DNA of 64,000 nucleotides from an uncultured Bdellovibrionales bacterium (GTDB taxonomy: Bacteria; Bdellovibrionota_C; UBA2361; SZUA-149), in NCBI GenBank assembly GCA_965366815.1, contig CBDUGV010000003.1, positions 741-64,740 of the forward strand, given 5' to 3'. The notes under the pieces were generated by a model. The model ran no database searches. It worked only from the letters and a program-made list of their open reading frames with translations, and was not told the origin of the DNA. A program made the translations under genes and the position numbers. Positions 15,228 through 58,934 of this stretch are shown here, one piece after another (the first letter of the stretch is position 1; every line of letters starts with the position of its first letter).

Positions 15228-16139
15228 CTACATTTCACTCTCGTCCAAAGCGGTCCGAACCCATCTGTTGCCATGCAGCACATACTTGATAAGTCGGCCG
15301 TTTCTGTCCGGGAGCACCATAGTCCCATCGGGAAGCTCAGGCTCTCCTTGGCCGCAATCGCCAACTACGTCGCAGTGTGTCACCGGACTTGCGGGAGGGG
15401 TTTCACTCCCATTACTTTTCGTTCCCCGCAGTGCGAGCGTGATTTTGCCCATACCTCGGGCGAGTTCTATTCGTTGTGCATCTCGGATGGTGACGAGCAG
15501 GGTTGCTGTTGCTCCTGCGCCGATATTTCGTCGTTTGTTGTCTTGATCCGTACCGTCAACAGAAAGTACTTTTACAAACTCGATAAGCGTCTTCACTGCT
15601 TTTCTGCCTCGTTGGTCCGTGTAGTGAAAAAGAATATCTACCCTGGAATTCGGTACGACATAGCCGTTCACAAGTTCAGTTTGTGTTCCGTAAATTGAAA
15701 CCGCTCGATATCCTGGTGGAATTGGCAGATCCCCAAGGGGAACTTTTTCGCTGATGTCGTCCTGAGAGATCGGAAAGCCAGCGCGAATCATCCGTTTCGC
15801 AAACTTTCCAAGCGCCATATCTTCGTGTGCCGCCGGGATGACCGAAAACGGGATGCGGTCCTTCTCGTACGACTGGAGGCTAAACATATTGGCATCAAGT
15901 CGCGTGCCTGACTCAATGCGGGTTGCGGCTATCAATACGTCGACCATTTCCAATTTCGCAGCCGGTGCATCGCTCGCTGCCGTGACTGCTGCTTGTGTCG
16001 TTTGTCCTCCTCCCAACACCATGTACGTTACAATTGAAAAGAGTGACAATACAATGACGGCTAAACCACTGATTGCAAGAACCATTTTTCGACGAGCACG
16101 TTGTGCAAAAGTCGTATTTGTCGCAAATCCCCTAGTCAT
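15228..16139 (-). CDS. cpaB: Flp pilus assembly protein CpaB/RcpC (SAF domain plus C-terminal beta-clip), lying alone with no other tad genes beside it.
   Basis: N-terminal TM segment, SAF-like region (VDVLIAATRIESGTRL), C-terminal region (RVDILFHYTD...FVKVLSVDG...ATATLLVTIRDAQRIELARGMGKITLALRG). GGAGGT lies 8 nt upstream of the ATG at 16139; the track ORF extends to 16193. Confidence 0.75.
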   Translation of the reverse strand: MTRGFATNTTFAQRARRKMVLAISGLAVIVLSLFSIVTYMVLGGGQTTQAAVTAASDAPAAKLEMVDVLIAATRIESGTRLDANMFSLQSYEKDRIPFSVIPAAHEDMALGKFAKRMIRAGFPISQDDISEKVPLGDLPIPPGYRAVSIYGTQTELVNGYVVPNSRVDILFHYTDQRGRKAVKTLIEFVKVLSVDGTDQDNKRRNIGAGATATLLVTIRDAQRIELARGMGKITLALRGTKSNGSETPPASPVTHCDVVGDCGQGEPELPDGTMVLPDRNGRLIKYVLHGNRWVRTALDESEM

Positions 16140-16322
16140 TCGGATACCTCCATCGGTATATTTTGTGATTGCTAAATAAATTTGCTCGAGCATTTGAATA
16201 GACTGAGTGCTTCGAAAATGGTTCGAATAAAAATATTCTTTCGAAGGGCCTAGTTAAATCAGATCGGATCAGTGTTCCTCGCTACATTTTTTCGAAGTTT
16301 TTGCCGAAAAAATACCTAGCCC

Positions 16323-16357: not shown

Positions 16358-16933
16358 ATGGAGTCATTAATCCCAGAAGAAGAACAGCTCTCTGAGCGCG
16401 AGGTGATTGAGCGCGTGCAGCACGGATCGCGGGAAGATTTTCGCCTGCTCGTGGTGGCCCATCAGTCACGTGTATTTGCAGCGATTCGGAGGCAAGGTGT
16501 TCAATCACATATTGCCAAGGAACTTACACAAGAAGTGTTCCTGAAAGCCTTTCTCAATATTAACTCGTTTCGATTTGAGGCGAGTTTTTCAACTTGGCTA
16601 TTGCGAATTACAATTAACCACACAAGTTCCTATTTTACCTCGAAGCGTTTTCGACAAGGGAAACAGACTATTCATCTGACCAGTGCAATGCATGAAGCGC
16701 ACGGAGAAGAGGACACCGACTGTTACGATCGAGAAGCGCTTGGGCGACTCAAACTGGTGATTGCGGCATTACCACCGAAGTATCGTGAGGTGTTGGTGCT
16801 ATGTGGTTTTGAACAACGCTCCTACCAAGAGATTTCAGATTTGCTTGGTATTCCGGTCGGCACCGTGCGTTCTCGATTGCATAAAGCACGGTGTATGGCG
16901 AAAGAACTCTATTTTCAGCGCAACAACGAGTAG
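16358..16933 (+). CDS. ECF (sigma-70 family, group 4) RNA polymerase sigma factor.
   Basis: Region 2 (VVAHQSRVFAAIRR...TQEVFLKAFLNINSF) and region 4 (YREVLVLCGFEQRSYQEISDLLGIPVGTVRSRLHKAR). Confidence 0.85.
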   Translation: MESLIPEEEQLSEREVIERVQHGSREDFRLLVVAHQSRVFAAIRRQGVQSHIAKELTQEVFLKAFLNINSFRFEASFSTWLLRITINHTSSYFTSKRFRQGKQTIHLTSAMHEAHGEEDTDCYDREALGRLKLVIAALPPKYREVLVLCGFEQRSYQEISDLLGIPVGTVRSRLHKARCMAKELYFQRNNE

Positions 16934-16937
16934 ACCT

Positions 16938-17807
16938 ATGGATTCGAAACTGACACAAAGGCGTTTTTTAGATTTATTCGAAGGACAGCTCACTGAAGAA
17001 GAGCGGCTTGTCCTAGAAGATGAACTCGAGACCTCTCCAGAGTTAAACAGAGAGTATACTGAGTATCGAGCCTTGGCGAAGCTCGAAGAGCTTATTGCTT
17101 CAGAAGACTTCTATCTTGAAGAAGACCTTTCAGAAATCGTCCTCGACACGATTGAGGACAAGGGAATGCAACAAGAAGCTCATGCAGCCTATTTCCGAAA
17201 GTATCATGTTTGGATTGGCAGCTTGATGAGTGTGAATGTGGCGCTTCTCGCGGTATTGGTGACACTGTTGGCACGTGGACCGGTTGCCACACCAAGCGCT
17301 CCTCGGGATACGCAAGTACAAGTTGCGAGTAGCGATGCTATCGTCCCAGGTTTTCGACCAGTTACGATCGACGTTGCAATGCCGAAGAAATTTCATCCGG
17401 AGCGTGTCGATATCCGCGTTGCATATGAGCGAGATGGTCGAAGGCAGCTTCATGATTTGGCTCGATTCGTGAAAGTGCTCGACATTAAGGATGCGCATGA
17501 CAGTGATGTTGCAAATGCCCGATTGACGCTACTTGTGCCCGATGAGGCTGCTGAGCGGATTACCCTTGCGCGACTTGTTGGTGAACTAGATTTGCTACTT
17601 TCCTCCCCGATTGCCTCTCCGAAGCCGCAGGGTGGTGAGCAGGTAACCATTCGCGACCCTTCTGGGCGACCGATTGTCGAGAATGCGGCACGCTCGACCT
17701 TTGCGGTGCTCTATTTACCAGAGAGAGACTCTGGTGTCCCAGTTCGTCAGGTGTACTATGAAGGTCATTGGCATCGTCACTACGATATGCGGGCGATTGG
17801 CTTCTAG
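16938..17807 (+). CDS. Putative anti-sigma factor: cytoplasmic N-terminal domain, one TM helix, and a periplasmic CpaB C-terminal-like domain.
   Basis: The ATG at 16938 is 2 nt after the sigma stop. The N-terminus LDLFEGQLTEEERLVLEDELE is anti-sigma-like and the TM helix is IGSLMSVNVALLAVLVTLLA. The C-terminus RVDIRVAYERDGRRQLHDLARFVKVLDIKD...ARLTLLVPDEAAERITLARLVGELDLLL aligns with the C-terminus of the adjacent CpaB (RVDILFHY...LIEFVKVLSVDG...ATLLVTIRDAQRIELARGMGKITLAL). The track's longer ORF (from 16761) overlaps the sigma gene in another frame; I rejected it. Confidence 0.6.
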   Translation: MDSKLTQRRFLDLFEGQLTEEERLVLEDELETSPELNREYTEYRALAKLEELIASEDFYLEEDLSEIVLDTIEDKGMQQEAHAAYFRKYHVWIGSLMSVNVALLAVLVTLLARGPVATPSAPRDTQVQVASSDAIVPGFRPVTIDVAMPKKFHPERVDIRVAYERDGRRQLHDLARFVKVLDIKDAHDSDVANARLTLLVPDEAAERITLARLVGELDLLLSSPIASPKPQGGEQVTIRDPSGRPIVENAARSTFAVLYLPERDSGVPVRQVYYEGHWHRHYDMRAIGF

Positions 17808-26322: not shown

Positions 26323-28692
26323 CTATTCGGCTGGGGGTATCTTGGCTCGTTTTAACGCTTCAATCAAGCTCGCCTTGCTGGGGATGGTCGAAAGCACCGT
26401 TGGTTTCTCAGGAGCTGACGCTGGAATTACTACATACAGTGGAACTCCGGTGCCACCATATCGTCGGAGCGCCCGGGTAATCTCATCGCTGCCTGAAGTC
26501 CAATCGGCGATAAGCGGTACAACTCCGTTCTCTTCCAATGCGGCAGCCACTTCCTTGGTCTCTAATATCAAATACTCATTGGCTTTGCAGGTAATACACC
26601 AATCTGCAGTAAAATCGATAAATACACTCTGCCCTTGTGCCAAAAGTTCTTCTAAGCGGCTATCGGAGTAGTTTTGCCAGGGAATGAGGCTATTGGTTTT
26701 CGCGCTTTGTTCACCCTGAACAGTCGGCTGTTGCACCGGGGTGATTATCTTCGGATAGAGCTTCAAAGCGGATACAAGCACTAATAGAAGCGTTACTACG
26801 GTGACAAGTGTTTTAGCTTTACCGGATTTCCAAGTTGCGAGCCAATCAAACAACCAGAAACAATATAAGACGATGAGGAGTAAAAGAACGCACCACATAC
26901 TTCCTTCCCCACTCAGGCTATGAAGTATGAATAGCAGCCAAACAACTGTAGCTAAGAGAAAGAATCCCATGAGCTGTCGTAGGCGATCCATCCAAGGTCC
27001 TGGTTTGGGTAATCGCTCGAGTAGTTTCGGATGCGTCGAGAGAAAATAGTAAGGAAGCGCAAGACCGTGGCCAATTGCCAAGAAGACCGCGATTGTCTGA
27101 AGTGCAGGTTGGGTAAAGGCAAAGACCAGCGCAGTGCCGAGGAAGGGAGCAGTGCATGGGGTCGACAGTGCCGTTGCGAGTACACCTTCAAAAAAATGTT
27201 TCGTGAGCGAAGGCTTCAACTCATCAACTGCCGTGCATGACTTTCCAATGAAGGGCAGCTGAAAGGTATAGAGATTGAAGAATCCCAGACTCAAACAAAA
27301 CAAAATCAATGTTAATCCCAATACGAATTCAGGATGTTGAAACTGAAATCCCCAACCGAGCTGAAAGCCAAACGATCGGAGGGTAACGACGCAAAGTGCC
27401 AATACGAGAAAGGTCGCGATGATACCACTTGAAAAGGCAAGTGCGTTTCTCCTAGCGTCGCGTAGGTCTTCACCACTGTGACCGACGAATCCCATTACCT
27501 TGATGCCGATAATTGGCAATACGCAGGGCATGAGATTGAGCAGCATTCCTCCGATAAATCCGAATACAAGCGCAATTAACATTCCGAGCAGACTACTCGC
27601 TGGCGTAGCGTTAATCGGGAGTTCAACCGCGGTCTTAGGCAGTTGAACGCGAAACGTCGCTTCTGTGAAAGGAGAGGCTGCAACCATCAGCGCTAGGACT
27701 TCGGGTGGAGCTTCTTCTGATGCACTCTGAGAAATATTGAGATCTATCTCCCAGGCGAGTGAAAGATCCTGAGGCGTCCTGGCAATGTCTGCGGAGAGTA
27801 CGGCAATGCCTTTGATTTTTTGATTCCCCTCTGCCGCAGTTGAGTCGATTTCAAGCAGCTGGGTTGCGACCGTAGGTATCGCTGCATCTTCTTGCTCCTG
27901 TTTCCCAGTACCGACTTGCACGATACCGGGAGTTATAAAATCCGGCAGTGGCTCGAGAAAAATTTGAATATGCTTGTACGGCTCTTCGAGTGGGGCAAGC
28001 CCCTGAAACTCGAGAGCCATAGTGAATTCAACTCCCGCTGGAACACTGTGCCGACTCGGCACAACCTCCAATCCGACTGTGGTATCGACGAGCTGTCGCC
28101 ACTTCGAGACGCTTGTTGGATGAAGCTTTGAATACTTAGAAAAAACTTCACTTTTGCGCGATGGAGTAGAGGGTGTATCCGTGAGTTGAATTTTGACTTG
28201 AGCTTTGGCTTCCCCAGGAATACAGATGTCTTTGCAGACGAGCCAACTTGTCGAGGCTTCTATTTCAATCGCATCTTCATCATAGGCCTCTGGTGCATGT
28301 GCGATGATCGAAGAGGAAAGAAGCACCTCTTTTTTATAGCCATAGGTAATAATGCCTCCTCGTTCAATGAATCGCTGAGGAGCCGGCCAGAGTAAGTCTC
28401 CAGTCGACCAGCCATTTGACACTCTCCAATGCACTTTTGTCGGGACGGCTGATTCCCCACTATTTTTCCAGTAGATATGCCAACCTGGTTGGATGTGAAA
28501 AAGAACACCGACTTGCGTCTCAATCTGTTGATCTGCCGAACCACGTTGCAGATTTTCATTGAGTGCAACCAGCTCAATTTCTACCGGGTGTTTCGGAACT
28601 GCGAGTTGGGCCTGCAGCAGGAGCGGGTTGAGCAACAGGAAAGCTGCGGGAACTAAAACTGTCCAGAGATATGTCAGAATAGATCGATTCAT
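26323..28692 (-). CDS. dsbD: Thiol:disulfide interchange protein DsbD (N-terminal periplasmic domain, membrane core, C-terminal thioredoxin).
   Basis: Membrane core with the paired Cys ([14 protein letters not shown]) and C-terminal thioredoxin CxxC ([14 protein letters not shown]). 789 aa. Confidence 0.8.
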
Positions 28693-30362: not shown

Positions 30363-31946
30363 TCAGTAGCCGTCGGAAATCGCCGCACACGGTAACCGCT
30401 TTCGTTTGCTTATTCCAGTTAACCAATTCGGCTTGTCGAACAGTATCAATTCTAATTCATCTGGGTGCTCTACGGTTTCACAAACTGTGGCAAATACTTT
30501 CTTGAACACTCGCTCGGCATGGTAGGGGGGGCTTTCGAATACCGAAAATGACCAGCGAAGAATGTGGACAATTTCTCTGCCGTCAAGGGACTGTATTGAA
30601 CCTTGCACTTCTTTAGGAAGCTCCTGCTTTATTCTATCACTCTTTAGTTCTATCTCAGCCTCTCGTGTCGTCCAGGAGTAGAGCGCATGAGAAAAGAAAT
30701 CATCCCAGTTGGTAAAGAAGTTGAGCAGCGGTGCCACGAAAAACAGCAGTGCCAAGAACGCATGTACTAATCCCTTGTTCAAAAGGATCGCGCGAGGACC
30801 TAGATCTCTCACCTTCCAAAATACCAGCCATAGCAAAACGATGTGAACGACATTCCAGGACCAAACGCTGTGGTTCCAATTGAGTCCAAACGGGCCAAAT
30901 ACCAATAATATTGCCAGATGCATACCGGTGAGGAGAATGACACCGAGCTTTCTCGTCCTCGTAAATAGCAGGCAGAGCGCACCACCGCTTTCAACCACCG
31001 GACTCAGGAAGGCACTCGCATATACAAACGCTTTTATGTCCGCCGAGAGGCTCGCGACAAAGGGCTCAACCATCCAGGGAAAGCCAACAAACAGATATTT
31101 TGCACTTATCTTGTGGAGTCCACTCCAAAACCAGATTCCGATCAAGATAATTCCAAGCGTGTTGAGCAGAACGCGTTCCTTCTCTCGGAGTTCCTCCGGA
31201 GAACGCTGCTCATTCCAAGGGAAGAACCCCATAGCGAACAGCATTAACGCGAATTCAACATAGTAGGGCATCAAACGCGACTGATCGAAGAGGCTATAGC
31301 TCGTTACGAGCGCAACGAAAATCGCGATCTGTTTTCTCGGATCTGGCAAAGCGGCTATCAGCAACAATGCAAGGATCAGAATAGTGAAGATCAGATAATC
31401 AATTGGGAAAGGGATTTGTGGCAAACTATCGTGAACGGGAATAAGGGGGTAGAAACGCGAGTGCTGGGAGAACCAAAGGTTTCTCGTAATAGGCATAGGT
31501 ATCAGAAAGCCCAAGACGACAGCGATCTTACACCAATAGAGCCGTTGGTAGGGACCAAACAGCACCATCCGGTTAATGGCAAAGAGTGGATAGATGCACA
31601 CTGCAATCCAGATAAACGGAGGGAGTTGTAGAATGCGCGCAAATGGAGCGAGTTTCGAGTTGGATTCAAGCAACCGCAAAACCGCTGGGGCTCCTTTTGT
31701 TATAGTGCCATCTTTTCCAACGAGGTGGATGGCGCCTTCGGCCGCCTCTCGCGATACCGCTTCTGGTAACTGAGCATTTCGAAAGTCGAGAAACGACGCT
31801 TCGCTCTCTGTCTCCACCTTAGCGACAAAGGCACGACACATCGGACAGTCTCCATCATAGAAGACTTCTTCTTCTCCTTCTTGATTGCTTTTATCTTCGT
31901 CGTTCTCGGACATATGGGGAATCGAGCGTAGGCTATGCTTGGTCAA
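30363..31946 (-). CDS. DCC-family thiol-disulfide oxidoreductase (DUF393) domain fused to a large polytopic membrane domain (possibly HTTM / gamma-carboxylase-like).
   Basis: N-terminal VFYDGDCPMCRAFVAKV matches the DUF393 YDGxCxLC motif. It is followed by about 400 aa of hydrophobic segments. Confidence 0.55.
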   Translation of the reverse strand: MTKHSLRSIPHMSENDEDKSNQEGEEEVFYDGDCPMCRAFVAKVETESEASFLDFRNAQLPEAVSREAAEGAIHLVGKDGTITKGAPAVLRLLESNSKLAPFARILQLPPFIWIAVCIYPLFAINRMVLFGPYQRLYWCKIAVVLGFLIPMPITRNLWFSQHSRFYPLIPVHDSLPQIPFPIDYLIFTILILALLLIAALPDPRKQIAIFVALVTSYSLFDQSRLMPYYVEFALMLFAMGFFPWNEQRSPEELREKERVLLNTLGIILIGIWFWSGLHKISAKYLFVGFPWMVEPFVASLSADIKAFVYASAFLSPVVESGGALCLLFTRTRKLGVILLTGMHLAILLVFGPFGLNWNHSVWSWNVVHIVLLWLVFWKVRDLGPRAILLNKGLVHAFLALLFFVAPLLNFFTNWDDFFSHALYSWTTREAEIELKSDRIKQELPKEVQGSIQSLDGREIVHILRWSFSVFESPPYHAERVFKKVFATVCETVEHPDELELILFDKPNWLTGISKRKRLPCAAISDGY

Positions 31947-32595: not shown

Positions 32596-35500
32596 ATGAT
32601 TCGTAGACCTGCCCTTTGTTTCCTCTCCAGCGTCCTGCTCGCGTTCTACGCGTTTGTGCCGGTCGTATTGGCCGATGAGCACGCGCATCATTTGCATTCA
32701 GACCAAGAGGCATCAACTGCTGATATAGATGCCTGCCGAATTGTCCACGAAGAGAAGGGTGCGATATTGGCCGAACTCTCTCCCCCAATCGATGTCAATG
32801 CTGAGCCAGATGTCGAGCCGAGGGGTGCCGTTGTGTCGCTTGCGGTAGCGTCGGCGGGGGGTGCATTCGCTTTGCACAGCAATCCAACCGCCACGAAGAA
32901 GATCTTCTTAGACTTTGATGGGCACGTGGTTTCCGGAACTATCTGGAATTCACGAAATGGTGGCAATGACATTCATGCCCCTGCATTTAGTACAGATACA
33001 GACATTACCACTTTTTCAGCGTCTGAACTTGCGCGGATAGAAGAAATTTGGCGGCGAGTGTCTGAGGACTTTGCTCCATTTGACGTTGATGTAACTACTG
33101 AGGATCCAGGAGTTGCTGCATTTACCGCAGGGCGTCAGGCGCTTCGAGTGATGATAAGTACTGATGTTGACGAAGCGTCAATTGGAGGCACCGGTAATCG
33201 CTGGTACAGCGGTGCTGGAGGTGTCGCGTACTACAACTCATGGGACTGGACAAGTGATACGCCAGTTTGGGTGTTTGAAAACAATCTCGGCAACGGCAAT
33301 GAAAAATATACGGCTGAGGCCTCCTCTCATGAAATTGGGCATGCGCTCGGTTTGAGTCATGACGGAGATTCAGCGGTAGATTACTACAGAGGTCACGGGT
33401 CAGGTGCGACTGGTTGGGCGCCAATCATGGGCGTCGGATACTACAGAGCCTTATCTCAATGGAGTAAAGGTGAATATTTTGAGGCCGACAATACTCAAGA
33501 CGATCTCGCTATTATAACTACTCGGTTGCCCTATCGAACCGATGATCACGGTGACACGAATGGGACAGCCACCACTATTGTGCCAACGGGTACGAGTATA
33601 GCCGCGAATGGCGTTGTTACTACACCGACAGATGTTGACGTCTATGCGTTCACCACTGGTGCTGGTCTCGTATCAATCGCCATTGATCCGTATGACGCCT
33701 CCGATGGAAAAGCTAACCTCGATATTGAAGCGAAGCTCTACACCTCTGGTGGCGGCCTTGTGGTGACGAGCAATCCGGCAGATTCGCTCAATGCATCGAT
33801 TTCTGAGACGCTCGCGGCTGGGACCTATTACCTCCACATTGATGGCGTGGGAAAAGGCAATTTGACTACAGGGTATAGTGATTACGGAAGTCTTGGAGCC
33901 TATACTATCTCTGGCAGTGTACAGTTAGGCGGTGGTGGCGGTGATACAATTCCTCCAACGGCGGCAATTGGCAGTCATCCAGACGTCACAGTAGCTGCTG
34001 GGACGAGCTACGATTTTACAGTTCAGTTCTCTGACAATACTGCGATCAATGTCTCTACGCTGACGACGGGAGACACCCTTGTCACTGGTCCGAACTCATA
34101 CTCAACGACAGCAAGTTTTGTTGGGGTCAACAACAACAGCAATGGAACCCCAAGGACGGCAACCTATAGAATCACGCCACCGGGGGGGGCGTGGAGTGCA
34201 TCAGATAACGGCACTTATACAATTTCATTGGCAAGCAACCAGGTGCTCGATACTTCTGCCAACACGGCGCTGAGCGGTACTCTTGCGACGTTTAGTGTTT
34301 CGGTGGTCGACGACGCTGATAGCGATGGTGTTCCGGATGCGACAGATAACTGTCCAACGACGCCAAATGCCGGCCAAGAAAATTTCGATGGAGATGGGCA
34401 GGGCGATGCCTGCGACCCGAACGACGATAACGACAGCGTGAACGATTCTGGCGACTGCGCTCGCCTCGATGCTTCCCGATGGCGCAACCGTGCATACCCA
34501 GATACTGACAGAGACGGAGTGCGAGAATCCGCCACTCTCAAAACAGTTGCCTGTTATGGAACCACTCCACCGAGTGGGTATACCACTGCGGAGAATGGTC
34601 CGGACAATTGCCCGACGATTGCAAATGCCGGGCAGGAGAATTTCGATCTCGATGGTCAAGGGGATGCCTGTGACGCCGACGATGACAATGATGGCTTGGC
34701 GGATACTTCAGAGAACGAGTCTTCTTGCCCATTCCGTCTCGACCCTGATTCTGACGATGATGGCCAAACAGATGGTACTGATCCGAATCCCTGTGTGGCC
34801 GACGAGGAACCTGAACTCGGTAAGCGATTTTGTTCGGAATGGAACGGATTCTTAGGCGACACTCTTACTGGAGCGGGAATGTTTAACGTTATGGAAGTAC
34901 AGCGCAAGGGGGTCGGATCAGGTGCGAGGTCTACTCCAGTCAATGTGTTGGTAACGCTTTTCGAGCAAAACGGGACATCGCGAGAGAAAATTGGGTTTGC
35001 CCTTGCTCCCGGAGAGAAACGCGATGTGCTGGTTCACGATATGGACGGATTCACGCCGCTCAGTATTGGGTTGGTTTGCGTGGAACATGACGGTCCAGCG
35101 GGCGAGATAGACGGAGCGATGATCCACTACAATCAGCGTCGTGGTTCCTATGATTTTTCTATCGCAAGCGCCTTCTCTGCAGGGCTATTGGGAAGACAAG
35201 CAGTTCCCTATAACACCTATCACCCAGGACTGGCTGCGCGCCTTGAAGACAATGATCCAGACGATATCGGACAGCCCGTGCTGCCGGACCGGGTCGCGAA
35301 CTGGTTACAGATCTCTTATCCGCCAAAATCTGGTGATAGCAGAAGATTTCACGCAACTCTCACCTTGCATGATATGCGCGGAAACGTCATGCGGGATGAA
35401 AACGACCAAGAAGCTCGATTTATCATCGACATGGCTCCCGGTGAGCGAGTAGATTTTTCTGCACATGCCTACGGCCACTCTCGAGTGGGGATGGCGGTGT

Positions 35501-36273
35501 TAGAACCACAATTCGACTCTGTTGATATTCGAGTGGTGTTTGGAAACAATCGTTACTTCTATCGCAAGAACTTGGCAGTAAGTACTTTTGATACGGCATT
35601 TCGAGTCGAGTCGCTCAAAGGAACTGAAACTGTCACCATCGCTTCGCTTGATACCCGGGCGGGCGCTTCGGCTATTGTCGAAGTGTTAAATCCGAATGAC
35701 ACGAGCGCTGCTGCGCTGGTGCAAGTTTTTTCCGAAAATGGTGAGTTTAGAGGCCAAGTGGAGCTGAGCGAGGGCGATCTGCCGCCACGTGCGAGTTTCC
35801 ACGTTATAACTGATACCATTCTTGGGCAAAACCAACGGGGAGTCGCGATTATCACCCCCTTAGTCGGGTCTATCGCAGCGGTTGAGATGGAGTATCATCG
35901 AGACAACCGTGGAGTACTTGAGTTTGCTGCGGCGACACCAGCGGTGAGTCCTGTGGGCGTGGTAGTCGGTGCTGGCTACAATACTTGGCTCGGACAGGTG
36001 GCAGAAGTCATTGTTATGAATCCGTCAACGACTGCGCGGAATGCCAGCTTTGATGTGCTTGGCCAGAGCGGAGAGGTCCTTTTTGGCGGTCTGCCGCTAT
36101 CGGTACCGGCGTCTGGTCATGCAGTGATTCGAATCAATGATTATGTAGCTGCCAATCTCTATGGACAGATACTCGTCCATGTTCCTACCAATGGAAGCTC
36201 TCAACCAACACTGGCTGCAAGAATGCGTCGGGTGGCGGATGGTGCTTGGGTGCTCTCCTTGCCCGTGCGCTAG
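32596..36273 (+). CDS. Large secreted zinc metalloprotease (metzincin): PPC-like domain, two thrombospondin type 3 Ca-binding repeat blocks, and a roughly 450-aa C-terminal domain of unknown function.
   Basis: Signal peptide, HEIGHALGLSHDGD (HExxHxxGxxH), the pre-peptidase C-terminal-like segment (TPTDVDVYAFTTGAGLVSIAIDP...YYLHIDG), and TSP3 repeats (DSDGVPDATDNCPTTPNAGQENFDGDGQGDACDPNDDND and DNCPTIANAGQENFDLDGQGDACDADDDNDGLAD). Confidence 0.75.
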   Translation: MIRRPALCFLSSVLLAFYAFVPVVLADEHAHHLHSDQEASTADIDACRIVHEEKGAILAELSPPIDVNAEPDVEPRGAVVSLAVASAGGAFALHSNPTATKKIFLDFDGHVVSGTIWNSRNGGNDIHAPAFSTDTDITTFSASELARIEEIWRRVSEDFAPFDVDVTTEDPGVAAFTAGRQALRVMISTDVDEASIGGTGNRWYSGAGGVAYYNSWDWTSDTPVWVFENNLGNGNEKYTAEASSHEIGHALGLSHDGDSAVDYYRGHGSGATGWAPIMGVGYYRALSQWSKGEYFEADNTQDDLAIITTRLPYRTDDHGDTNGTATTIVPTGTSIAANGVVTTPTDVDVYAFTTGAGLVSIAIDPYDASDGKANLDIEAKLYTSGGGLVVTSNPADSLNASISETLAAGTYYLHIDGVGKGNLTTGYSDYGSLGAYTISGSVQLGGGGGDTIPPTAAIGSHPDVTVAAGTSYDFTVQFSDNTAINVSTLTTGDTLVTGPNSYSTTASFVGVNNNSNGTPRTATYRITPPGGAWSASDNGTYTISLASNQVLDTSANTALSGTLATFSVSVVDDADSDGVPDATDNCPTTPNAGQENFDGDGQGDACDPNDDNDSVNDSGDCARLDASRWRNRAYPDTDRDGVRESATLKTVACYGTTPPSGYTTAENGPDNCPTIANAGQENFDLDGQGDACDADDDNDGLADTSENESSCPFRLDPDSDDDGQTDGTDPNPCVADEEPELGKRFCSEWNGFLGDTLTGAGMFNVMEVQRKGVGSGARSTPVNVLVTLFEQNGTSREKIGFALAPGEKRDVLVHDMDGFTPLSIGLVCVEHDGPAGEIDGAMIHYNQRRGSYDFSIASAFSAGLLGRQAVPYNTYHPGLAARLEDNDPDDIGQPVLPDRVANWLQISYPPKSGDSRRFHATLTLHDMRGNVMRDENDQEARFIIDMAPGERVDFSAHAYGHSRVGMAVLEPQFDSVDIRVVFGNNRYFYRKNLAVSTFDTAFRVESLKGTETVTIASLDTRAGASAIVEVLNPNDTSAAALVQVFSENGEFRGQVELSEGDLPPRASFHVITDTILGQNQRGVAIITPLVGSIAAVEMEYHRDNRGVLEFAAATPAVSPVGVVVGAGYNTWLGQVAEVIVMNPSTTARNASFDVLGQSGEVLFGGLPLSVPASGHAVIRINDYVAANLYGQILVHVPTNGSSQPTLAARMRRVADGAWVLSLPVR

Positions 36274-48780: not shown

Positions 48781-51546
48781 CTAAAAGAACTTTCCTGTCT
48801 TCTTAGGTAGATAGAATTGGCCTATCGGGCCACCGAACGCGTAGTATTGCGTCGCTCCATTTCGGTTGTTGATATACCAGTTGCCGGAACGGAATACTGT
48901 GATGTCGAGTAGTCCGTCGCCGTTAAAGTCTCCGACGATAGGTAAGTCACCGAGAGCCGCAAGACCCCAAGGGATTGCTGTCAGATTCTCAGTATCCTTT
49001 GTCAGGAGATACCAGACTCCGCTGCCGTTTGCGTCCCAGGCCATCCAATCTGCTTTCCCATCAGAGTCCCAGTCACCAGGGACAGGAACCATGCCGTTGA
49101 GACCCCACTGCCGTGTGGTGAACGGCTCAGAGGCGCCATTTGGATAGCTCGAGTTAAGCACATACCAAGTACCATCTGACGGACGCCAAACAGCTGGGTC
49201 GGTCTTTCCATCACCATCGTAATCGGCAGGTACTGGAATATCTCCAGCGAGCCCCCAATAGTAGGCAACAGGATCTTCCGGGTTGATTGCCCAGATACCA
49301 ATACCTAAGCTGTCGTCATAGACCGCCAGTTCATCGAGGCCATCGCCGTTGTAATCATTGATTACCATGTTGTGCGATGCGGCACCCCAATATCGAGCAT
49401 AGACACCGCCCGTACTGGAATAGATTACAATGTGAAGCGCCGGGAAGCAGGTAATGCAGGTAACTCCTCGGTCGATCTTTCCATCGCCATCGAAGTCTCC
49501 TCGAATTGGTCGATAGTTATAGTCAGCCCAGACAAACTGCTGAAAGCCTTCTAAGGATCGGAGGTCGTAGAAGATACCCCATACGCCCCAAACAGATGGC
49601 TCACTTACGCCATCACCATCCCAGTCCCAATCACGGATTGCAAGGCGAGGATCTGGCGCGCCCGGAACATATGCTCCTGTCTTTACATGAACTGAAGAAT
49701 AGCGGCGAGTTGTGTTCGTGCCGTCATCAACCTCTACATAGATATAGTAATCAGTGTTTGCTGGTAGTGAAGAGGTGTTCCAGGTAAATGACTTATTACC
49801 TGCGGTCTGGTTGTTCAGGGTCGCAATGAGCGTTCCATTGAAGCCAGTATTGTCCGTGTCGTAATACAAACGGACGGTAAATGTACTGCTGTCCGCATCA
49901 GCGACCGAATATCTGATAGTAAAACGATCTCCTGGTGCTCGGTTTTCACCGACGAGCTTTGCGTAGTCCAAGAAGGTCCAAACATATTGTCCTGCAAGGG
50001 TAAATTCACCTGGATCGAATCGAAAGTTTGCCAAACGATAGTACGATTCCCAAGCGGGACCTCTTCCAAGGTTGTTGACATCAGCCATATCGAGCCAATA
50101 GGTGTTCATTCCTGGATACGTAGGGAATGCCCAGGTCTCCATTCCGTCACCCACGACATCTGTGTTCCAAGCGACAAATCGCGCGACCCATCCATCCCGG
50201 ATACGATCGGCAACCGTTGGAAACAAGGTCGCATCATGGCCGAAGCGAATTACCGCATAGCGGTAATGGTTCGGATCAATCGAACTGGTATTCAAGCGAA
50301 ACTGCACATCACTCTCCAAATTCCCCAGACTGCTATACGGAGGTTCTGCTTGTGCTTGAAAACGATATCCACCTTCAACAGTGGATGAATCTGCGACAAA
50401 GCTCTCGTTGATGAACTGTCGCAACACTTGTAGGTCACCGAGATTTTCAATATCAACTCCGCTGGGGTCCATATCCCAAGGGTTGCCAACTTCGACAGTG
50501 GCATAGTCGTCACCAGAAGTAGGAGAGGGAGAAGTGATATACACACTTGGCTTTGAAGTTACCCGAACACGGGCCGAGTAAGCAGTGCGAAGCGGCGAGC
50601 CGGTGAACGATCCACCGACGTGTCGCTGCAACTCAACATAGAAGTAATGATCTCCTGGTGGAAGAATCGCAGATGGTATCGTGTGTGAACCTGGATCAAT
50701 CCCCTTTCCATAGCGGGCGAGGAGTGTTCCGTTGAATCCACTTGCGTCGGTGTCATGATAAACCGAAACAACGTAGCTCGAGTTGATACCGCTGGAGTTC
50801 CAGTCAATCACGATATTTGGAGCCGAGTTCGGATCGACAAGGCGAATCCAATCAAATTGCGTTACAGAGCCTGCCGAACCGAAAAGAGAGGGGTCAATTC
50901 GTAGCGCGTGGATGTTGTTTGCATTCCAAGCTCCCTGAGTAACTTCGAAACTATTGCTGGAATTTGCAAGATCGAAATCGTAGATCTTGAAACCAGTGTA
51001 GTTGTTGTTGCTGTCGGAATGGTACCAGCCGTCAAAACTAGCTCCATTTGGACTAGAGGGTACTGGCCAAAGTCCGGTATTGAGATCCTTTCTCGATTCC
51101 CAATAGACGGCGAAGGAACTTCGATTCGTTTGATTAAGTCGATAGGCCAGTCGAGTGTACTTGGTTCCATCGATTTGGTGATTGATTCCATACTTCGGGA
51201 GCGTTCGATCTCCAGGTAGTGCTTCAGCGGAAGAAAGCTTTTCGGGCGCGCTGATATTTGGGAACACCGGAAAGACATATCCACCCTGTGCGGAGAATGT
51301 TCCCTGCCAAAGGCCATTGGTCGCAGTCACACTTGTGCCAACGAAGTTCTCTTCCCAACCAATCATATATCGATTGAAACCATCAGCTGGTTGGTCGAGC
51401 ATGTCTGAGAAGTAGTCATCGCCCTCAGCCACAGTTTGGTTTGAAAGTGGCCCTTGAAGACTAATTGACTGCGCAAATGCCGTTCCTGGCACGCAGAAGA
51501 ATAGAGCAGTGAGTAAAAAGGAGAATGGTAAAAACCGTAGCTTCAT
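48781..51546 (-). CDS. Large secreted protein with an internally duplicated N-terminal region and C-terminal FG-GAP-like repeats.
   Basis: Signal peptide. Duplicated segments (VVSVYHDTDASGFNGTLLARYGKG and TVRLYYDTDNTGFNGTLIATLNN). At least five FG-GAP-type repeats (DFDGDGKIDR, DYNGDGLDELAV, DYDGDGKTDPAVW, DWDSDGKADWMAW, DFNGDGLLDITVF). Confidence 0.65.
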   Translation of the reverse strand: MKLRFLPFSFLLTALFFCVPGTAFAQSISLQGPLSNQTVAEGDDYFSDMLDQPADGFNRYMIGWEENFVGTSVTATNGLWQGTFSAQGGYVFPVFPNISAPEKLSSAEALPGDRTLPKYGINHQIDGTKYTRLAYRLNQTNRSSFAVYWESRKDLNTGLWPVPSSPNGASFDGWYHSDSNNNYTGFKIYDFDLANSSNSFEVTQGAWNANNIHALRIDPSLFGSAGSVTQFDWIRLVDPNSAPNIVIDWNSSGINSSYVVSVYHDTDASGFNGTLLARYGKGIDPGSHTIPSAILPPGDHYFYVELQRHVGGSFTGSPLRTAYSARVRVTSKPSVYITSPSPTSGDDYATVEVGNPWDMDPSGVDIENLGDLQVLRQFINESFVADSSTVEGGYRFQAQAEPPYSSLGNLESDVQFRLNTSSIDPNHYRYAVIRFGHDATLFPTVADRIRDGWVARFVAWNTDVVGDGMETWAFPTYPGMNTYWLDMADVNNLGRGPAWESYYRLANFRFDPGEFTLAGQYVWTFLDYAKLVGENRAPGDRFTIRYSVADADSSTFTVRLYYDTDNTGFNGTLIATLNNQTAGNKSFTWNTSSLPANTDYYIYVEVDDGTNTTRRYSSVHVKTGAYVPGAPDPRLAIRDWDWDGDGVSEPSVWGVWGIFYDLRSLEGFQQFVWADYNYRPIRGDFDGDGKIDRGVTCITCFPALHIVIYSSTGGVYARYWGAASHNMVINDYNGDGLDELAVYDDSLGIGIWAINPEDPVAYYWGLAGDIPVPADYDGDGKTDPAVWRPSDGTWYVLNSSYPNGASEPFTTRQWGLNGMVPVPGDWDSDGKADWMAWDANGSGVWYLLTKDTENLTAIPWGLAALGDLPIVGDFNGDGLLDITVFRSGNWYINNRNGATQYYAFGGPIGQFYLPKKTGKFF

Positions 51547-54417: not shown

Positions 54418-56475
54418 CTAGCCTTCGCTGACCTGGACCAAAATAAAAGGATTTTCACCTAAGACGACGTTCATGTATTCGTCTATCTGCTCGACCATCG
54501 TGCGGCAAAGTGGATCTTCGGTTATTCTTTCTTCGCTATTGTCACACTGCACTTTCGGTGTGCATTCATCCGATGGCGGACGAATGGGGCCAAAGAGTCC
54601 CTGAGTTGCCGCTGCAACTTCATAAACAGCTGTGTTCGCCTCATACCAGGGATCGACAGTGGACATTCGGTTATACGCTTCTCCCAAGGAATTGAACTTA
54701 TCTTCGTTATATCCACCTTTGACGTACGGTACATTCTCTTTCCGGGCATCAAAGTCACTCAGACAATCACCGACGCCACTCTCGTCGAGCGTGCGTTCGA
54801 CCGTATGCGGAGCAACAGCGCCACCAACTAGAATCCAGTGAATCGGAACATTTCGCTCGCTGAGCGCCTCGTTAACGAAGGTGTACAAATCTTGTTTCGC
54901 CTGCTGATAGTATTGCAAGGTGTTGTTGCAACCAGGGGTACATCCTGAAAGCTGATTGGGAAAATCGTCTGGATCGTAGCAATGACGACAGTTAAACACG
55001 CCGTCACCGATCGACACAATAAAACTCGATGCAGAACCATCGGGGTTGATCTCCAGAAGCTGTTGCATCGCTTCAGATAAGGCAGAAATAGTGTCAGTGC
55101 TAAAAGCCTCCGAACCTGCTGGAATTAAATTGTGCCGTAAGAGAAGCTCATATCCACGCAGATTCTGATCTTTCAAATCTTCGGAGGTGATACCAGGTGG
55201 ATCGTCTTGAATCGGTCCAGTCACATCAAAATTGGTGAGATTCTTCAAATAATCAAAATCGTCGGTTGGCTTAATCACTCCAGTCCAGGGCATGCGAGAG
55301 TTATAGAAAATCATGCATAATTTATCGCCGGCGACCTGACGTTTTTCAAAAGTTTCAATTGCGCGGTTGAGCCCTCGAAAGACGGTGCGGAGTGGTTCTG
55401 GTCCAAGCTGCGTCGCATCGCGGTACACATCCGCCCGATACCAGCGGCCGTCATTCCCCACATTCGGATTGGCATCAATCACCACTTGATAGCGCGGATC
55501 AGAGGCCGGATCGGGGTGAAGCGGGTAGCGTGTTCGGTCGTAGTCGCCATCACCTAAGCTTTTCTTGAGGCGATAGTCATCGTAAAAGTGCATGGTTTGA
55601 TATTGTTGGTCCGTCAGGTCGACGAAAGGAAATCCCAAGAATGCCGCCCACTCGACAGAATTTTGTGGCCGTGGTTGACCATTGCAAACAGCGGAGGGAG
55701 GGGAACTCTTGGAAAGTTCATTACTGCAAAGAAAATTGTAATGTTCGGTTTGATAAAAATCTTCACTCACCGATTTATTGTCAGATTCGAGGAGAAACGT
55801 TGCTTCGCGACCTCGCCCGCCGGTCGGATCATCGTTTTGCTTGGTTGTCGTTCGACTTGGATGTGTTTCTCGAATCATCGAGAGCGACATATCGACCAGA
55901 AAACAGCCATGTCGCGGCACGATACTGGAGACGGCTCGCACATGTACTGGGAAGGATTGAATGCCAAACAGCCAACGGCCAAGTTTCGTTGTGATGCCCT
56001 GGTACATTGAACCGGTAATCCGATATGCCGTGACCTTTGCATCTGCATCGTTCGGATCGGAAGGTACAAAGCACGGATAGGCACTGTCATCCGAGCCGCA
56101 GCTCTCATCAGAGTCTTTGGCAGTGAGCCAAACACCTGGTTCAAGCAATGCTCCTGATGCAGAAGGGTTGTCAGAGAGCTCGCCATCTTGATTCCCGGAT
56201 GAACTATTCATCAGCAATAGGTTTTTCTCCGAGACTTTCTGTGCGCGTGCAAGTGCGTCGCTAACCTTATCTGGAACGGTCTCCGCTTTGCTGGAGATAT
56301 GAGCTTCGAGTGCTGCGAGCACTGCCAGTCGAGCATAGTGCTGGGTCTCTTCACGAGACGCTGCTGCAAGTGAAAGGTCGACCGCAAAGGCAACAAAGCT
56401 GAAAAATACGACGAGCAGCGACGCCACTAGTACGAGGATTGCTCCTTGTTCGCTCTTACCTTTCATCTCTAGCAA
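54418..56475 (-). CDS. TadG-like pseudopilin with a von Willebrand factor A domain.
   Basis: N-terminal Tad_N-like helix (EQGAILVLVASLLVVFFSFVAFAVDLSLAAAS), a vWA MIDAS motif (GCFLVDMSLSM), 685 aa. Confidence 0.55.
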   Translation of the reverse strand: MLEMKGKSEQGAILVLVASLLVVFFSFVAFAVDLSLAAASREETQHYARLAVLAALEAHISSKAETVPDKVSDALARAQKVSEKNLLLMNSSSGNQDGELSDNPSASGALLEPGVWLTAKDSDESCGSDDSAYPCFVPSDPNDADAKVTAYRITGSMYQGITTKLGRWLFGIQSFPVHVRAVSSIVPRHGCFLVDMSLSMIRETHPSRTTTKQNDDPTGGRGREATFLLESDNKSVSEDFYQTEHYNFLCSNELSKSSPPSAVCNGQPRPQNSVEWAAFLGFPFVDLTDQQYQTMHFYDDYRLKKSLGDGDYDRTRYPLHPDPASDPRYQVVIDANPNVGNDGRWYRADVYRDATQLGPEPLRTVFRGLNRAIETFEKRQVAGDKLCMIFYNSRMPWTGVIKPTDDFDYLKNLTNFDVTGPIQDDPPGITSEDLKDQNLRGYELLLRHNLIPAGSEAFSTDTISALSEAMQQLLEINPDGSASSFIVSIGDGVFNCRHCYDPDDFPNQLSGCTPGCNNTLQYYQQAKQDLYTFVNEALSERNVPIHWILVGGAVAPHTVERTLDESGVGDCLSDFDARKENVPYVKGGYNEDKFNSLGEAYNRMSTVDPWYEANTAVYEVAAATQGLFGPIRPPSDECTPKVQCDNSEERITEDPLCRTMVEQIDEYMNVVLGENPFILVQVSEG

Positions 56476-56492: not shown

Positions 56493-58451
56493 TTACTCTG
56501 GGCGAAACAGTCCGTCATCGGTCTTAATACAAGATTGTTCTGCGCACTCAGGAGGTCCACACCATGCTCCGTCATAGAGGACTGGCTTGTCAGGTGGGCA
56601 AATGCAGAGACAGCTATTGACGTTGAGCGCACCCCCGTGGCAAGCCAGGTTGCCAGGGCAGGCACAGCGATTTCCAACGGCAACTTTTGGGTCCGGACAT
56701 GTTTGACACCTGCAGTTAGACTTGAGGATTGAATTCGAACCACAACTGTCAGGAGTGAGGTCGCACACACAGCTGTTGCCTTCCGGCCTGGTGTTTGGCG
56801 GACAATCCGTGCAAGCACAGTTAGCGTCGTTGCGAATTTGACCAGCTGCGCAGGTATTGGTGCAACGGCAGGAACCGTTTACAATTTCCTTTCCGTTTGG
56901 ACATGAATAACAGGAGCACGTACTCGAATTCAATAATTGGTTCCCAGGACACTGTCGGTTACAGATGCATCGTGTGCCTTCGCCAATGAATCCGTCGGGG
57001 CAGCTGACGCACGAACAGCTCTGCTGATCGAGACGCTGGCCTTCCGGGCATTGCTTGTTACACACTCACCAGAGACCCCAAACAGGGACATGATCGGGCG
57101 GGCAAGCATCACAACGGCATTCCGACAGATTGAGAATTTCTGTTTGTTCGTTACAAGTTCCCCAAGCCTCACAAACACAAGAATTTCCGACTTTGGTGGT
57201 TCGGGGCGGACAAGGCGTGCAGCGACAGTTAACATAGTCGATGACCTCATTTTCTGCGCATTCAACATCACACACACAATTGTTGTTCTTTACCACTTTT
57301 GGTGGAGCACAGGATTCGCAACGACATTGGCTCGCGTTTAGATACTCACCCGCGTTGGGGTCGCAGTCTGCTTGGCAGACGCAGGTTGTATGTTGATCAT
57401 TTGCAACAGTTGCTCCTGGGCAGTTAAAGCATTTACAGTTAAGGAGATCTACAATCTGCTTTTCGCCAGTACACTCATTCTCTGTTATAAAATTAGCCGG
57501 GCAGCTACAAGAAGTCCCTTCTTCGTTTGCCATTTCTTGATTTGGGCAGTCGATGCAGGCGCAGTTATTTTGATCAAATATCTGATTCTCGCCGCAGCTC
57601 GCTTCTTCCGCGGTGGCAAACTGACAGTTGGTGCATCTACCAGAGTTATCTGGCATGAGAAAATTATCTCCGGGACATTCGCAGGTAAACGAACCATCGG
57701 GTTGTTCAACGTAGATGAGCCCTTCGCGACAGGAACAGACACCTTCTTCGCTTTCAACCTTCGACCCGTCGTCGGGATAGTCTTTACAGGGGCAAACGGT
57801 AGTTCCTTCTTCCCCGGCCGCGACAGCATCATTCACACAGTCGATTCGTTTGGGGAACGAAGGAGCAGAGCGTCGCTCTCGAAACCCAGAAGCAAAGCCC
57901 GACACTTGCAGAGGTCCCAAGAACCAGAGATAGGGCCGTACTTCAGCCCGTAAGGTAACTTCAATTGGTCGCTCACGTAGTTCAGCCGTAAGTGACGGGC
58001 CATTCGGAAGCTCTGCATCAAACGAATACTTGGGATCTGCAGTGTCCCCCTTTTTGTAATACGCACGTATGTCACTTGCGCCCAACATCAACTCTACTGC
58101 GGGCACGGTGTCGTCTCCGCCAACAAAATACATCGAGCTGTTCGCCGCCTTATCACCGATCATCGTGCGAAGGGGCATCTGTCGTGCAGTGGTCAAAACT
58201 GAAGTGATCGCTGATTCACGGCGAGATCCACAGGCAGACTGGTCTCCATCTGGCAAAAAGCGACAGTCGGTATCGAGATCTTCAACCACGGCCGCGAGCG
58301 ATACTGCTCGATTGGCCGAGCTATTGAGAATAGCTCGAGCTGTGAGGTATCGAGAAAAATCCATTAGGCCGAGCGTGAATAGAATGAGTAGCGGTAGAAC
58401 GAGTGCGAATTCCCAAATGGTCGCGCCATCCTGGTCGTTTTGTAGTCGCAT
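56493..58451 (-). CDS. TadE/TadF-like pseudopilin N-terminus fused to about 450 aa of tandem Cys-rich repeats. The reading frame is interrupted by one in-frame TGA at 57066-57068.
   Basis: TadE motif (IWEFALVLPLLILFTLGLMDFSRY). Repeats alternate CxCxxCP and CxCxxxC. Track ORFs 57066..58451 and 56493..57065 are in the same frame, separated only by TGA. The TGA aligns with a conserved Cys of the repeat (W*VCNKQCP versus RCICNRQCP). So this is either a selenocysteine codon, a nonsense mutation (pseudogene), or a sequencing error. Confidence 0.55.
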
Positions 58452-58466
58452 GAGCCCGGCTTTATC

Positions 58467-58934
58467 TTATCCAGCGTTGGCAAATAGGTATGGGCCGGTA
58501 GCTTCCGCTCCGAGATTTCGAAGCGAACCGAATTGTTCGAAAAATGGTTCGAAACTCAATTGTAGCCGCACCCGTACCTCTAGTTGATCATTGGCGTTTT
58601 TGTACAGCTCAGTCGAGAGACCTGAAACTGAAGTTCCCGGCACTCCATAGCGGTCGAGTAGGAATCGTACACGGTTTTGCACTTCGTAATGACCCTGAGG
58701 AAGAGAACGGTTGGCGGTATCGTGGTAACCCATCTCCAATGCACTATGGGAAACAGCGTACCTCGCCCCTTCGTAAACGACACGCCGCACATTTAAGTAT
58801 TGGTTTGCCGCTCTCCCTAGATCGACCGTTGCTGATACTAATAACAGTAAGAACGGCAAGGTAATAGCAATTTCGAGGAAGGCGTGTCCGCGCTCGTTAT
58901 CATTATCTCTATGTAGGTTGGACCTAAACATCAC
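58467..58934 (-). CDS. TadE-like pseudopilin.
   Basis: HAFLEIAITLPFLLLLVSATVDLGRAANQY is the TadE family N-terminal motif. 155 aa. Confidence 0.6.
   Translation of the reverse strand: MMFRSNLHRDNDNERGHAFLEIAITLPFLLLLVSATVDLGRAANQYLNVRRVVYEGARYAVSHSALEMGYHDTANRSLPQGHYEVQNRVRFLLDRYGVPGTSVSGLSTELYKNANDQLEVRVRLQLSFEPFFEQFGSLRNLGAEATGPYLFANAG

Follow-up and report, generated by a model that had tools for sequence, protein, structure and literature searches.

Results

A giant pilin gene interrupted by one in-frame TGA

We analysed a 64,000-nucleotide (nt) stretch of DNA from an uncultured Bdellovibrionales bacterium (the window; positions 741 to 64,740 of contig CBDUGV010000003.1, assembly GCA_965366815.1) and focused on a gene on its minus strand, 56493..58451, which encodes a giant TadE-like minor pilin. 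Translation of the window gives a frame of 652 codons running from 58451 to 56493, whose lone internal stop is codon 462, a TGA at 57066-57068 of the same strand. An intact allele of the gene, encoding the protein P0003, lies on a second contig, L001. The stop divides the frame into an upstream open reading frame (ORF) of 461 amino acids (aa; 57066..58451) and a downstream ORF of 190 aa with a GTG start (56493..57065), both on the minus strand. Our translation thus agrees with the initial annotation, which had described two ORFs in the same frame, separated by one TGA and amounting to about 652 aa when joined. Annotators should treat the two as a single disrupted gene.

The frame contains 71 Cys codons and, counting the TGA, would have 72 Cys among 652 residues (11%) on read-through. 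When the protein is split at every CxC, the stop occupies the first Cys of a CxCxxxC unit, *VCNKQCP; the claim that the TGA falls where the repeat register calls for a Cys is therefore borne out by the register as well as by the sister allele, which has a Cys there. Cys codons are also the largest target for nonsense mutation in this gene, since they account for 72 of the 252 one-base nonsense changes that are possible in the intact allele (29%), so that a stop at a Cys position is the commonest look of a random nonsense mutation here. The protein repeats have diverged at the DNA level, where we found no tandem repeats and a best internal direct repeat of 34 nt with 76% identity. This lack of long DNA repeats rules out a misassembly by repeat collapse as the source of the TGA. 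The odd spacer PDHVPVWGLW raised the idea of paired, compensating frameshifts around it, which was likewise ruled out, because the intact allele is identical there bar one base.

A sister allele has cysteine at the position of the stop

In the protein collection, the 90% cluster of the window protein also holds P0003, a protein of 652 aa with Cys at position 462. It is encoded by L001, an independent metagenome contig of 200 kb (ENA ERZ25043444 NODE_26), which aligns with the window without gaps over 17,508 nt at 99.857% identity. Codon 462 is TGT in L001 and TGA in the window, a single T-to-A change at the third codon base (window position 57066). Altogether, the two sequences differ at 25 sites, of which 19 are synonymous, four non-synonymous (the stop included) and two intergenic. 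Because synonymous differences outnumber non-synonymous ones 19 to four, the two contigs look like genuine strains that are closely related and under purifying selection, and not like the product of random base-calling errors.

The giant gene departs from this overall pattern, with two non-synonymous and no synonymous differences against two and 19 in the other 15.5 kb (hypergeometric p = 6/253 = 0.024). Its second non-synonymous difference lies at codon 294 (window position 57571, minus strand), which reads CAA (Gln) in the window but CCA (Pro) in L001; Pro also occurs in the corresponding repeat of the orthologue P0004. Judged by these sequence comparisons, the window alleles at codons 462 (Cys to stop) and 294 (Pro to Gln) are both derived. 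The two-to-zero pattern is compatible with relaxed or diversifying selection on the giant gene.

Exact look-ups of the 461-aa and 190-aa products returned no contig, and the contigs from other samples that were reached through neighbouring genes (L006, L009, L010 and L011) stop before codon 462. In three samples (ERZ25043462, ERZ25043448 and SRR26386732), contigs of the same population end inside or beside the giant gene; ERZ25043462 has one contig on either side, with about 1.6 kb of the gene missing between the two. These breaks could reflect either low coverage or strain differences at the locus.

The TGA lacks the hallmarks of a selenocysteine codon

The initial annotation had offered three explanations for the TGA, namely a TGY-to-TGA nonsense mutation, a sequencing error and read-through as selenocysteine (Sec). 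The first two stand, whereas the third is contradicted by the TGT in L001 and by the lack of any structure resembling a selenocysteine insertion sequence (SECIS). Orthologues or reads with TGT or TGC at this codon, together with a genome devoid of sel genes, had been named in advance as evidence against Sec, and the 99.86%-identical L001 provides the TGT. The proposed search for a SECIS hairpin gave the same answer: the 69 nt starting at the UGA fold with -15.6 kcal/mol compared with -19.3 +/- 2.9 for dinucleotide shuffles (z = +1.28), and are thus less stable than the shuffled controls. The site is also unremarkable within the gene, as folding the 60 nt that follow each Cys-position codon (72 in all) placed the UGA site 19th with -14.4 (mean -11.9, standard deviation 3.2). 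No SECIS-like hairpin was found by folding directly 3' of the UGA, and the sole hairpin, a modest one, spans 27-66 nt downstream. A hairpin that starts 27 nt after the UGA, with its apical loop about 46 nt downstream, is too far away for the geometry of a bacterial SECIS. Moreover, the sequence 3' of codon 462 within the gene is the same in the TGT allele, which argues that no dedicated recoding element has evolved.

Rfam gave no relevant match, even at E <= 10, and we found neither tRNA genes in the 64-kb window nor sel genes among its 39 ORFs that were scanned. Within the protein family described below, a UGA occurs in the window copy alone, and the 54 other Cys-rich members retrieved are all uninterrupted. 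A genome-wide reassignment of TGA was rejected, since TGA terminates six other long ORFs of the window. Stop usage across 50 long window ORFs was 31 TAG, 12 TAA and seven TGA (the internal one counted). Bacteria usually employ TAG least often of the three stop codons, and its excess in the window is therefore unusual.

A TadE-type pilin module followed by a cysteine-rich repeat region

Pfam TadE (PF07811) matches residues 9-49 of the giant protein with 41.3 bits (cut-off 22.9). The N-terminus carries a prepilin peptidase site, MRLQNDQDG/ATIWEFALVLPLLILF, with the cleavage motif G9/ATIWEF, Glu at +5 and a hydrophobic helix behind it. The TadE N-terminus that had been called from the sequence is thus present, and the approximately 20 alternating CxCxxCP and CxCxxxC repeats reported after it compare with 22-23 CxC units in our count. 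The pilin module (aa 1-215; 57807..58451, minus strand) comprises the leader (aa 1-9), a predicted alpha-1 helix (aa 10-55), a further predicted helix (aa 68-95) and beta-sheet, and a conserved GFRE...P.R.DC.G...CPC junction. It is followed by the Cys-rich repeat region (aa 220-652; 56496..57794, minus strand), where from residue 220 on CxCxxCP(x8-11) alternates with CxCxxxC(x9-11). This region has about 22 units, is predicted to form a chain of short beta-hairpins and ends in a conserved ...CGPxxC...PE tail. In two alignments of the family (A1 and A2), R191, E192, P200, C205, C220 and C222 are invariant.

An AlphaFold2 (AF2) model built on a 40-sequence family alignment reached a mean predicted local distance difference test (pLDDT) score of 85.3, with block means mostly of 84-98 over residues 11-190 and of 65-79 over residues 191-220. 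It shows the long alpha-1 helix (10-55), the second helix (68-95) and the beta-sheet, followed by more than 40 short strands arranged as serial hairpins; the sole poorly modelled stretch comprises residues 429-462. Foldseek searches of the Protein Data Bank (PDB) with the repeat region gave weak matches only (best E = 6e-5; TM-scores of at most 0.12 relative to the query), all of them to eukaryote-type disulfide-rich rods: the Chlamydomonas mastigoneme, Meckelin, TNFR Cys-rich domains, ErbB furin-like repeats and EGF. Pfam CXCXC (PF03128) gave a borderline score of 15.9 bits (cut-off 15, E = 0.016) when the repeat region was scanned alone, and no such match at E <= 0.01 in the full-length scan. 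A sequence search of the PDB produced no significant match for the giant protein, and NCBIfam produced none at all. The protein is best explained as a minor pilin of the TadE type that belongs to a Tad (type IVc) pilus and is composed of a pilin module of about 215 aa and a rod of about 430 aa that is predicted to be rich in disulfides.

Giant Cys-rich TadE proteins form a populated family

An exhaustive HMMER search over 1.84 billion cluster representatives revealed 173 relatives at E <= 1e-3, 38 of them at E <= 1e-10. We retrieved 152 sequences, comprising 150 listed cluster representatives of the 173 and two other alleles of this locus. The closest relatives are 573-778 aa long (E = 3.7e-100 to 3.5e-39) and follow the same plan, in which the TadE N-terminus and a core of about 180 aa, closed by the invariant [FY]RE...P...DC.G...CPC junction, precede long Cys-rich repeats. 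Among the sequences retrieved, at least 56 have the core and at least 20 Cys after it, including the locus's own alleles P0001 and P0003. The largest of these Cys-rich members reach 1206 aa and 148 Cys, while members of a second group, about 290-320 aa long, carry only a short tail after the core. Across the family, the rod extends for about 90 to about 1000 aa beyond the FRE junction. Glu is the last residue in about 35 of the 56 Cys-rich members, with Pro before it in 11 of these, and many have a ...CGPxxC... tail; in the window protein, the terminal residue E652 is at least 90% conserved (alignment A3). The Glu-ending tail may be a terminal recognition or capping signal.

The initial annotation had called a Cys-repeat TadE protein of 650 aa unusual. 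Its length is indeed atypical beside the 150-190 aa of TadE/TadF proteins, but it belongs to a populated family with the at least 56 Cys-rich members counted above. We found no description of this architecture in the searchable literature. The TadE pilin with a very long CxC-repeat rod is frequent in metagenomic data and represents an apparently undescribed family of dozens of diverged, unannotated proteins, in which the pilin module is extended by this putatively disulfide-rich rod. Furthermore, an 830-aa protein, P0022, has a signal peptide, no TadE domain and the same CxCxCP...CxCxxxC repeat type, with 41% identity over 110 aa. Since P0022 has the repeats without a TadE domain, the rod appears to be a portable module that is shared with other secreted proteins.

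Other searches were less productive. A word-index protein search with the full protein returned the window's own fragment alone, as Cys-rich words swamped the candidate list. The same search gave nothing with the N-terminal 237 aa and generic small TadE proteins only with alignment A1. Both JGI metagenome scans returned nothing, as did a scan of the genome collection with the single protein.

A three-gene pilin module and its surroundings

The giant gene is the middle one of three consecutive pilin-like genes on the minus strand. Upstream of it, at a distance of 15 nt, lies the first gene of the module, which encodes a small TadE-like minor pilin (58467..58934; a 155-aa ORF, or 154 aa from the ATG at 58931) with the motif G/HAFLEI and a Pfam TadE match of 32.4 bits (cut-off 22.9). 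The third gene starts 17 nt past the stop of the giant gene and encodes a TadG-like large minor pilin of 685 aa (54418..56475), which matches Pfam Tad (PF13400) with 22.8 bits (cut-off 22.3). A DMSLS (DxSxS) motif in this protein may be a candidate metal ion-dependent adhesion site (MIDAS) of a vWA domain.

When one genome of each GTDB species was scanned with alignment A2, which covers the N-terminus, the sole genome matches were three loci (L002, L003 and L004), all in metagenome-assembled genomes (MAGs) of Bdellovibrionota or Bdellovibrionales. Such loci would by themselves place the window most probably in an uncultured Bdellovibrionota member, a probable predator of the Bdellovibrio group. 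Orthologues of the small TadE gene lie directly upstream of the giant gene at all three, and TadG-like orthologues lie downstream of it at L002 and L003. As far as the contigs reach, the order small TadE, giant Cys-rich TadE, TadG-like is therefore kept in the three MAG loci. In the window, the module has nucleotidyltransferase or polysaccharide-export genes on one side and a methyltransferase gene on the other. Because the neighbours differ between the window and L002 and L003, the three-gene pilin module appears to move as a unit. In the two Bdellovibrionota MAGs with L002 and L003, a DnaK/Hsp70-like gene lies beside the module (L002 5477-5872 and L003 12574-14469).

A scan of the window for prepilin motifs revealed none outside the module, and the window scans found no tadV or flp genes. 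An RcpC/CpaB-like region contains ORFs at 15231-16193 (minus strand), 16358-16933 (plus strand) and 16761-17804 (plus strand); one of its two RcpC/CpaB-like ORFs is a strong match (67 bits) and the other falls below the cut-off, and the small ORF between them overlaps the second. These two ORFs might be part of a Tad system that is scattered over the genome, as in Bdellovibrio bacteriovorus. A scan for promoters and terminators was uninformative.

The window also encodes a DsbD-type thiol:disulfide interchange protein and a protein with a DCC1-like thiol-disulfide oxidoreductase domain (26326-28692 and 30366-31946, both on the minus strand), about 28 kb from the pilin gene. Their proximity is probably coincidental, yet such functions are relevant to a genome that exports proteins with at least 70 Cys. 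The neighbourhood of the module is rich in eukaryote-like extracellular domains. Two large proteins of a secreted type are encoded there: one of 921 aa (48784-51546, minus strand) has FG-GAP and Kre9/KNH-like Ig domains, and one of 1225 aa (32596-36270, plus strand) has a thrombospondin type 3 repeat and weak matches to reprolysin-like metalloproteases.

Discussion

The TGA is likely a recent nonsense allele that arose by a TGT-to-TGA change and acts as an ordinary stop, making the window copy an incipient pseudogene or a truncated variant of a pilin gene from a probable Tad tip module. The TGA allele would yield a 461-aa pilin with a complete pilin module but only about half a rod, as the truncation would remove 10-11 repeat units together with the conserved C-terminal tail. 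The tail looks functional, to judge from the Glu at the end of most Cys-rich members and the conservation of E652. Moreover, the 461-aa product has an odd number of Cys (39), and the 190-aa downstream ORF has no export signal. The loss of half the rod and of the tail, together with a downstream ORF that lacks such a signal, is the reason to regard the window copy as such an allele. Polarity of the stop on the TadG-like gene is possible.

Several points weigh against this reading. Codon 462 is covered by just one other assembly, and the comparison is one of assemblies. Members of the family span about 290-1206 aa, so that the 461-aa product could stay partly functional. The assignment to a tip complex is argued from gene order and by analogy; the module has no tad machinery next to it in the window, where the only candidates are the two RcpC/CpaB-like ORFs about 40 kb off; and Pfam did not detect a vWA domain in the TadG-like protein.

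Alternatively, the TGA could be a one-base consensus or sequencing error in an organism that has TGT and makes the intact 652-aa protein, which we regard as unlikely. The sole other assembly of the population that covers the codon does read TGT, both sequences are metagenome assemblies (the record name of the sister contig indicates about 7x coverage), and the locus assembles poorly, with the contigs of other samples ending in or beside the gene. These points are countered by the other 24 differences between the contigs, which look like real polymorphism (19 synonymous, three non-synonymous and two intergenic), and by the site itself, which has no homopolymer or long repeat that might promote mistakes. 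Since true single-nucleotide polymorphisms outnumber errors in this stretch and a second derived, damaging change lies in the same gene, a real nonsense allele, whether decaying or functional, is favoured over a consensus error with good but not full confidence.

A real stop allele might also be a maintained functional variant, in which a shorter-rod tip pilin of 461 aa, with or without low UGA read-through, represents natural variation in length or an on-off state. Rod lengths that differ so widely between family members, the accumulation of non-synonymous differences in the giant gene and the contig breaks in or beside it in three other samples, which may reflect strain heterogeneity, would all suit such variation. 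A precedent for functional variation comes from Myxococcus, where interchangeable Tips tune the prey range (PMC12075869). Nevertheless, the change is a plain transversion with no slippage-prone tract or inverted repeats, it removes the tail that ends in Glu in about 35 of 56 members and whose E652 is at least 90% conserved, it leaves the odd number of Cys, and just one such allele was seen. We therefore consider a maintained variant improbable. Finally, a Sec/Cys allele pair in a disulfide-rich extracellular protein, with the UGA read as Sec, is hardly credible: both the sister allele and the repeat register have Cys at this position, as is typical of Sec/Cys homologue pairs, and a modest hairpin does lie downstream, but the RNA there is less stable than shuffled controls and ordinary among the Cys-codon sites, Rfam is blank, the window has no tRNA or sel genes, and one Sec amid the 71 structural Cys of an exported pilin has no redox rationale.

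In Myxococcus, four interchangeable Tips prime the Kil Tad pilus and give it its functions, and each of them is a heterotrimer of the short pilin KilM, KilL with an extended C-terminal region and the large TadG-like KilN (Herrou et al., Nat Commun 2025, PMC12075869). The Tips are encoded by stand-alone three-gene clusters and have many predicted disulfides; the role of KilL, KilM and KilN as a Tip was shown genetically and modelled, and the Tips tune the prey range (PMC12075869). In the same study, sequence searches for homologues of the three proteins failed outside Myxococcota, while structure searches predicted a Tip complex in B. bacteriovorus (PMC12075869). In the latter, the tad genes are reported to be spread across several loci, one of which has tadG on its own, and depletion of Tad to abolish durable prey attachment and invasion (bioRxiv 10.64898/2026.07.08.737194).

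By analogy, the three window genes probably encode the tip of a Tad pilus, with a disulfide-rich rod on it. We propose that the three prepilins would be cleaved after their conserved Gly by a prepilin peptidase, and that their alpha-1 helices would bundle to form a priming or tip complex. The approximately 35 disulfides of the rod would form in the periplasm and give a rigid, protease-resistant structure. The three pilins would stay at the end of the filament, exposing the TadE-borne rod and the TadG-like head to a surface or to prey. Because Tad is needed for invasion by Bdellovibrio and Tips set the prey range in Myxococcus, the rod-bearing TadE proteins are concrete candidates for the prey-contacting end of the Tad pilus in the Bdellovibrio group. 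A bolder version of this proposal, which we regard as speculative and rather doubtful, would see here an undescribed class of Tad tip in Bdellovibrionota. Its TadE-borne CxC rod would be tens of nm long, hold at least about 35 disulfides (in relatives, up to about 1000 aa of rod and 148 Cys) and, on the invasion pilus, act to contact prey or to probe the envelope. Length and sequence of the rod would vary between strains, and the stop allele would be one instance of this variation and not simple decay.

Comparison with known systems helps to place the protein. Like canonical TadE/TadF proteins (PF07811), it has a leader, the G/xxxxE[FY] prepilin peptidase motif and a hydrophobic alpha-1 helix; its model suggests the helix and sheet of a pilin fold, and its gene lies beside another TadE gene and a TadG-like gene. 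Unlike these proteins of about 150-190 aa, the giant pilin has 652 aa, with an extra GFRE...DC.G...CPC junction and a rod of about 430 aa with 70 Cys, and within the window its module is not inside an operon for tad machinery. With eukaryote-type disulfide-rich rods, it shares a predicted series of short beta-hairpins held by regularly spaced Cys, which most likely represents convergent architecture and not membership of any of these families.

The in-frame UGA at a position where a homologue has Cys recalls bacterial selenoproteins with Cys homologues, such as those with the FdhF-type UGA/SECIS. In contrast to these, the gene has no SECIS-like element at a suitable distance and no catalytic redox context, recoding machinery was not seen in the window, and the Cys allele is 99.86% identical in DNA with the same downstream sequence.

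The Kil Tips, which we compared by gene order and layout, provide a counterpart to the module as a whole. Each comes from a stand-alone cluster in which genes for a short pilin and a C-terminally extended one accompany that for a large TadG-like pilin. Numerous intramolecular disulfides are predicted in both, and both occur in predatory lineages. They differ in where the variable part resides: in models of the Kil Tips, the variable distal domain is carried by the TadG-like KilN, whereas in the module described here a large, variable repeat rod is carried by the TadE-like protein.

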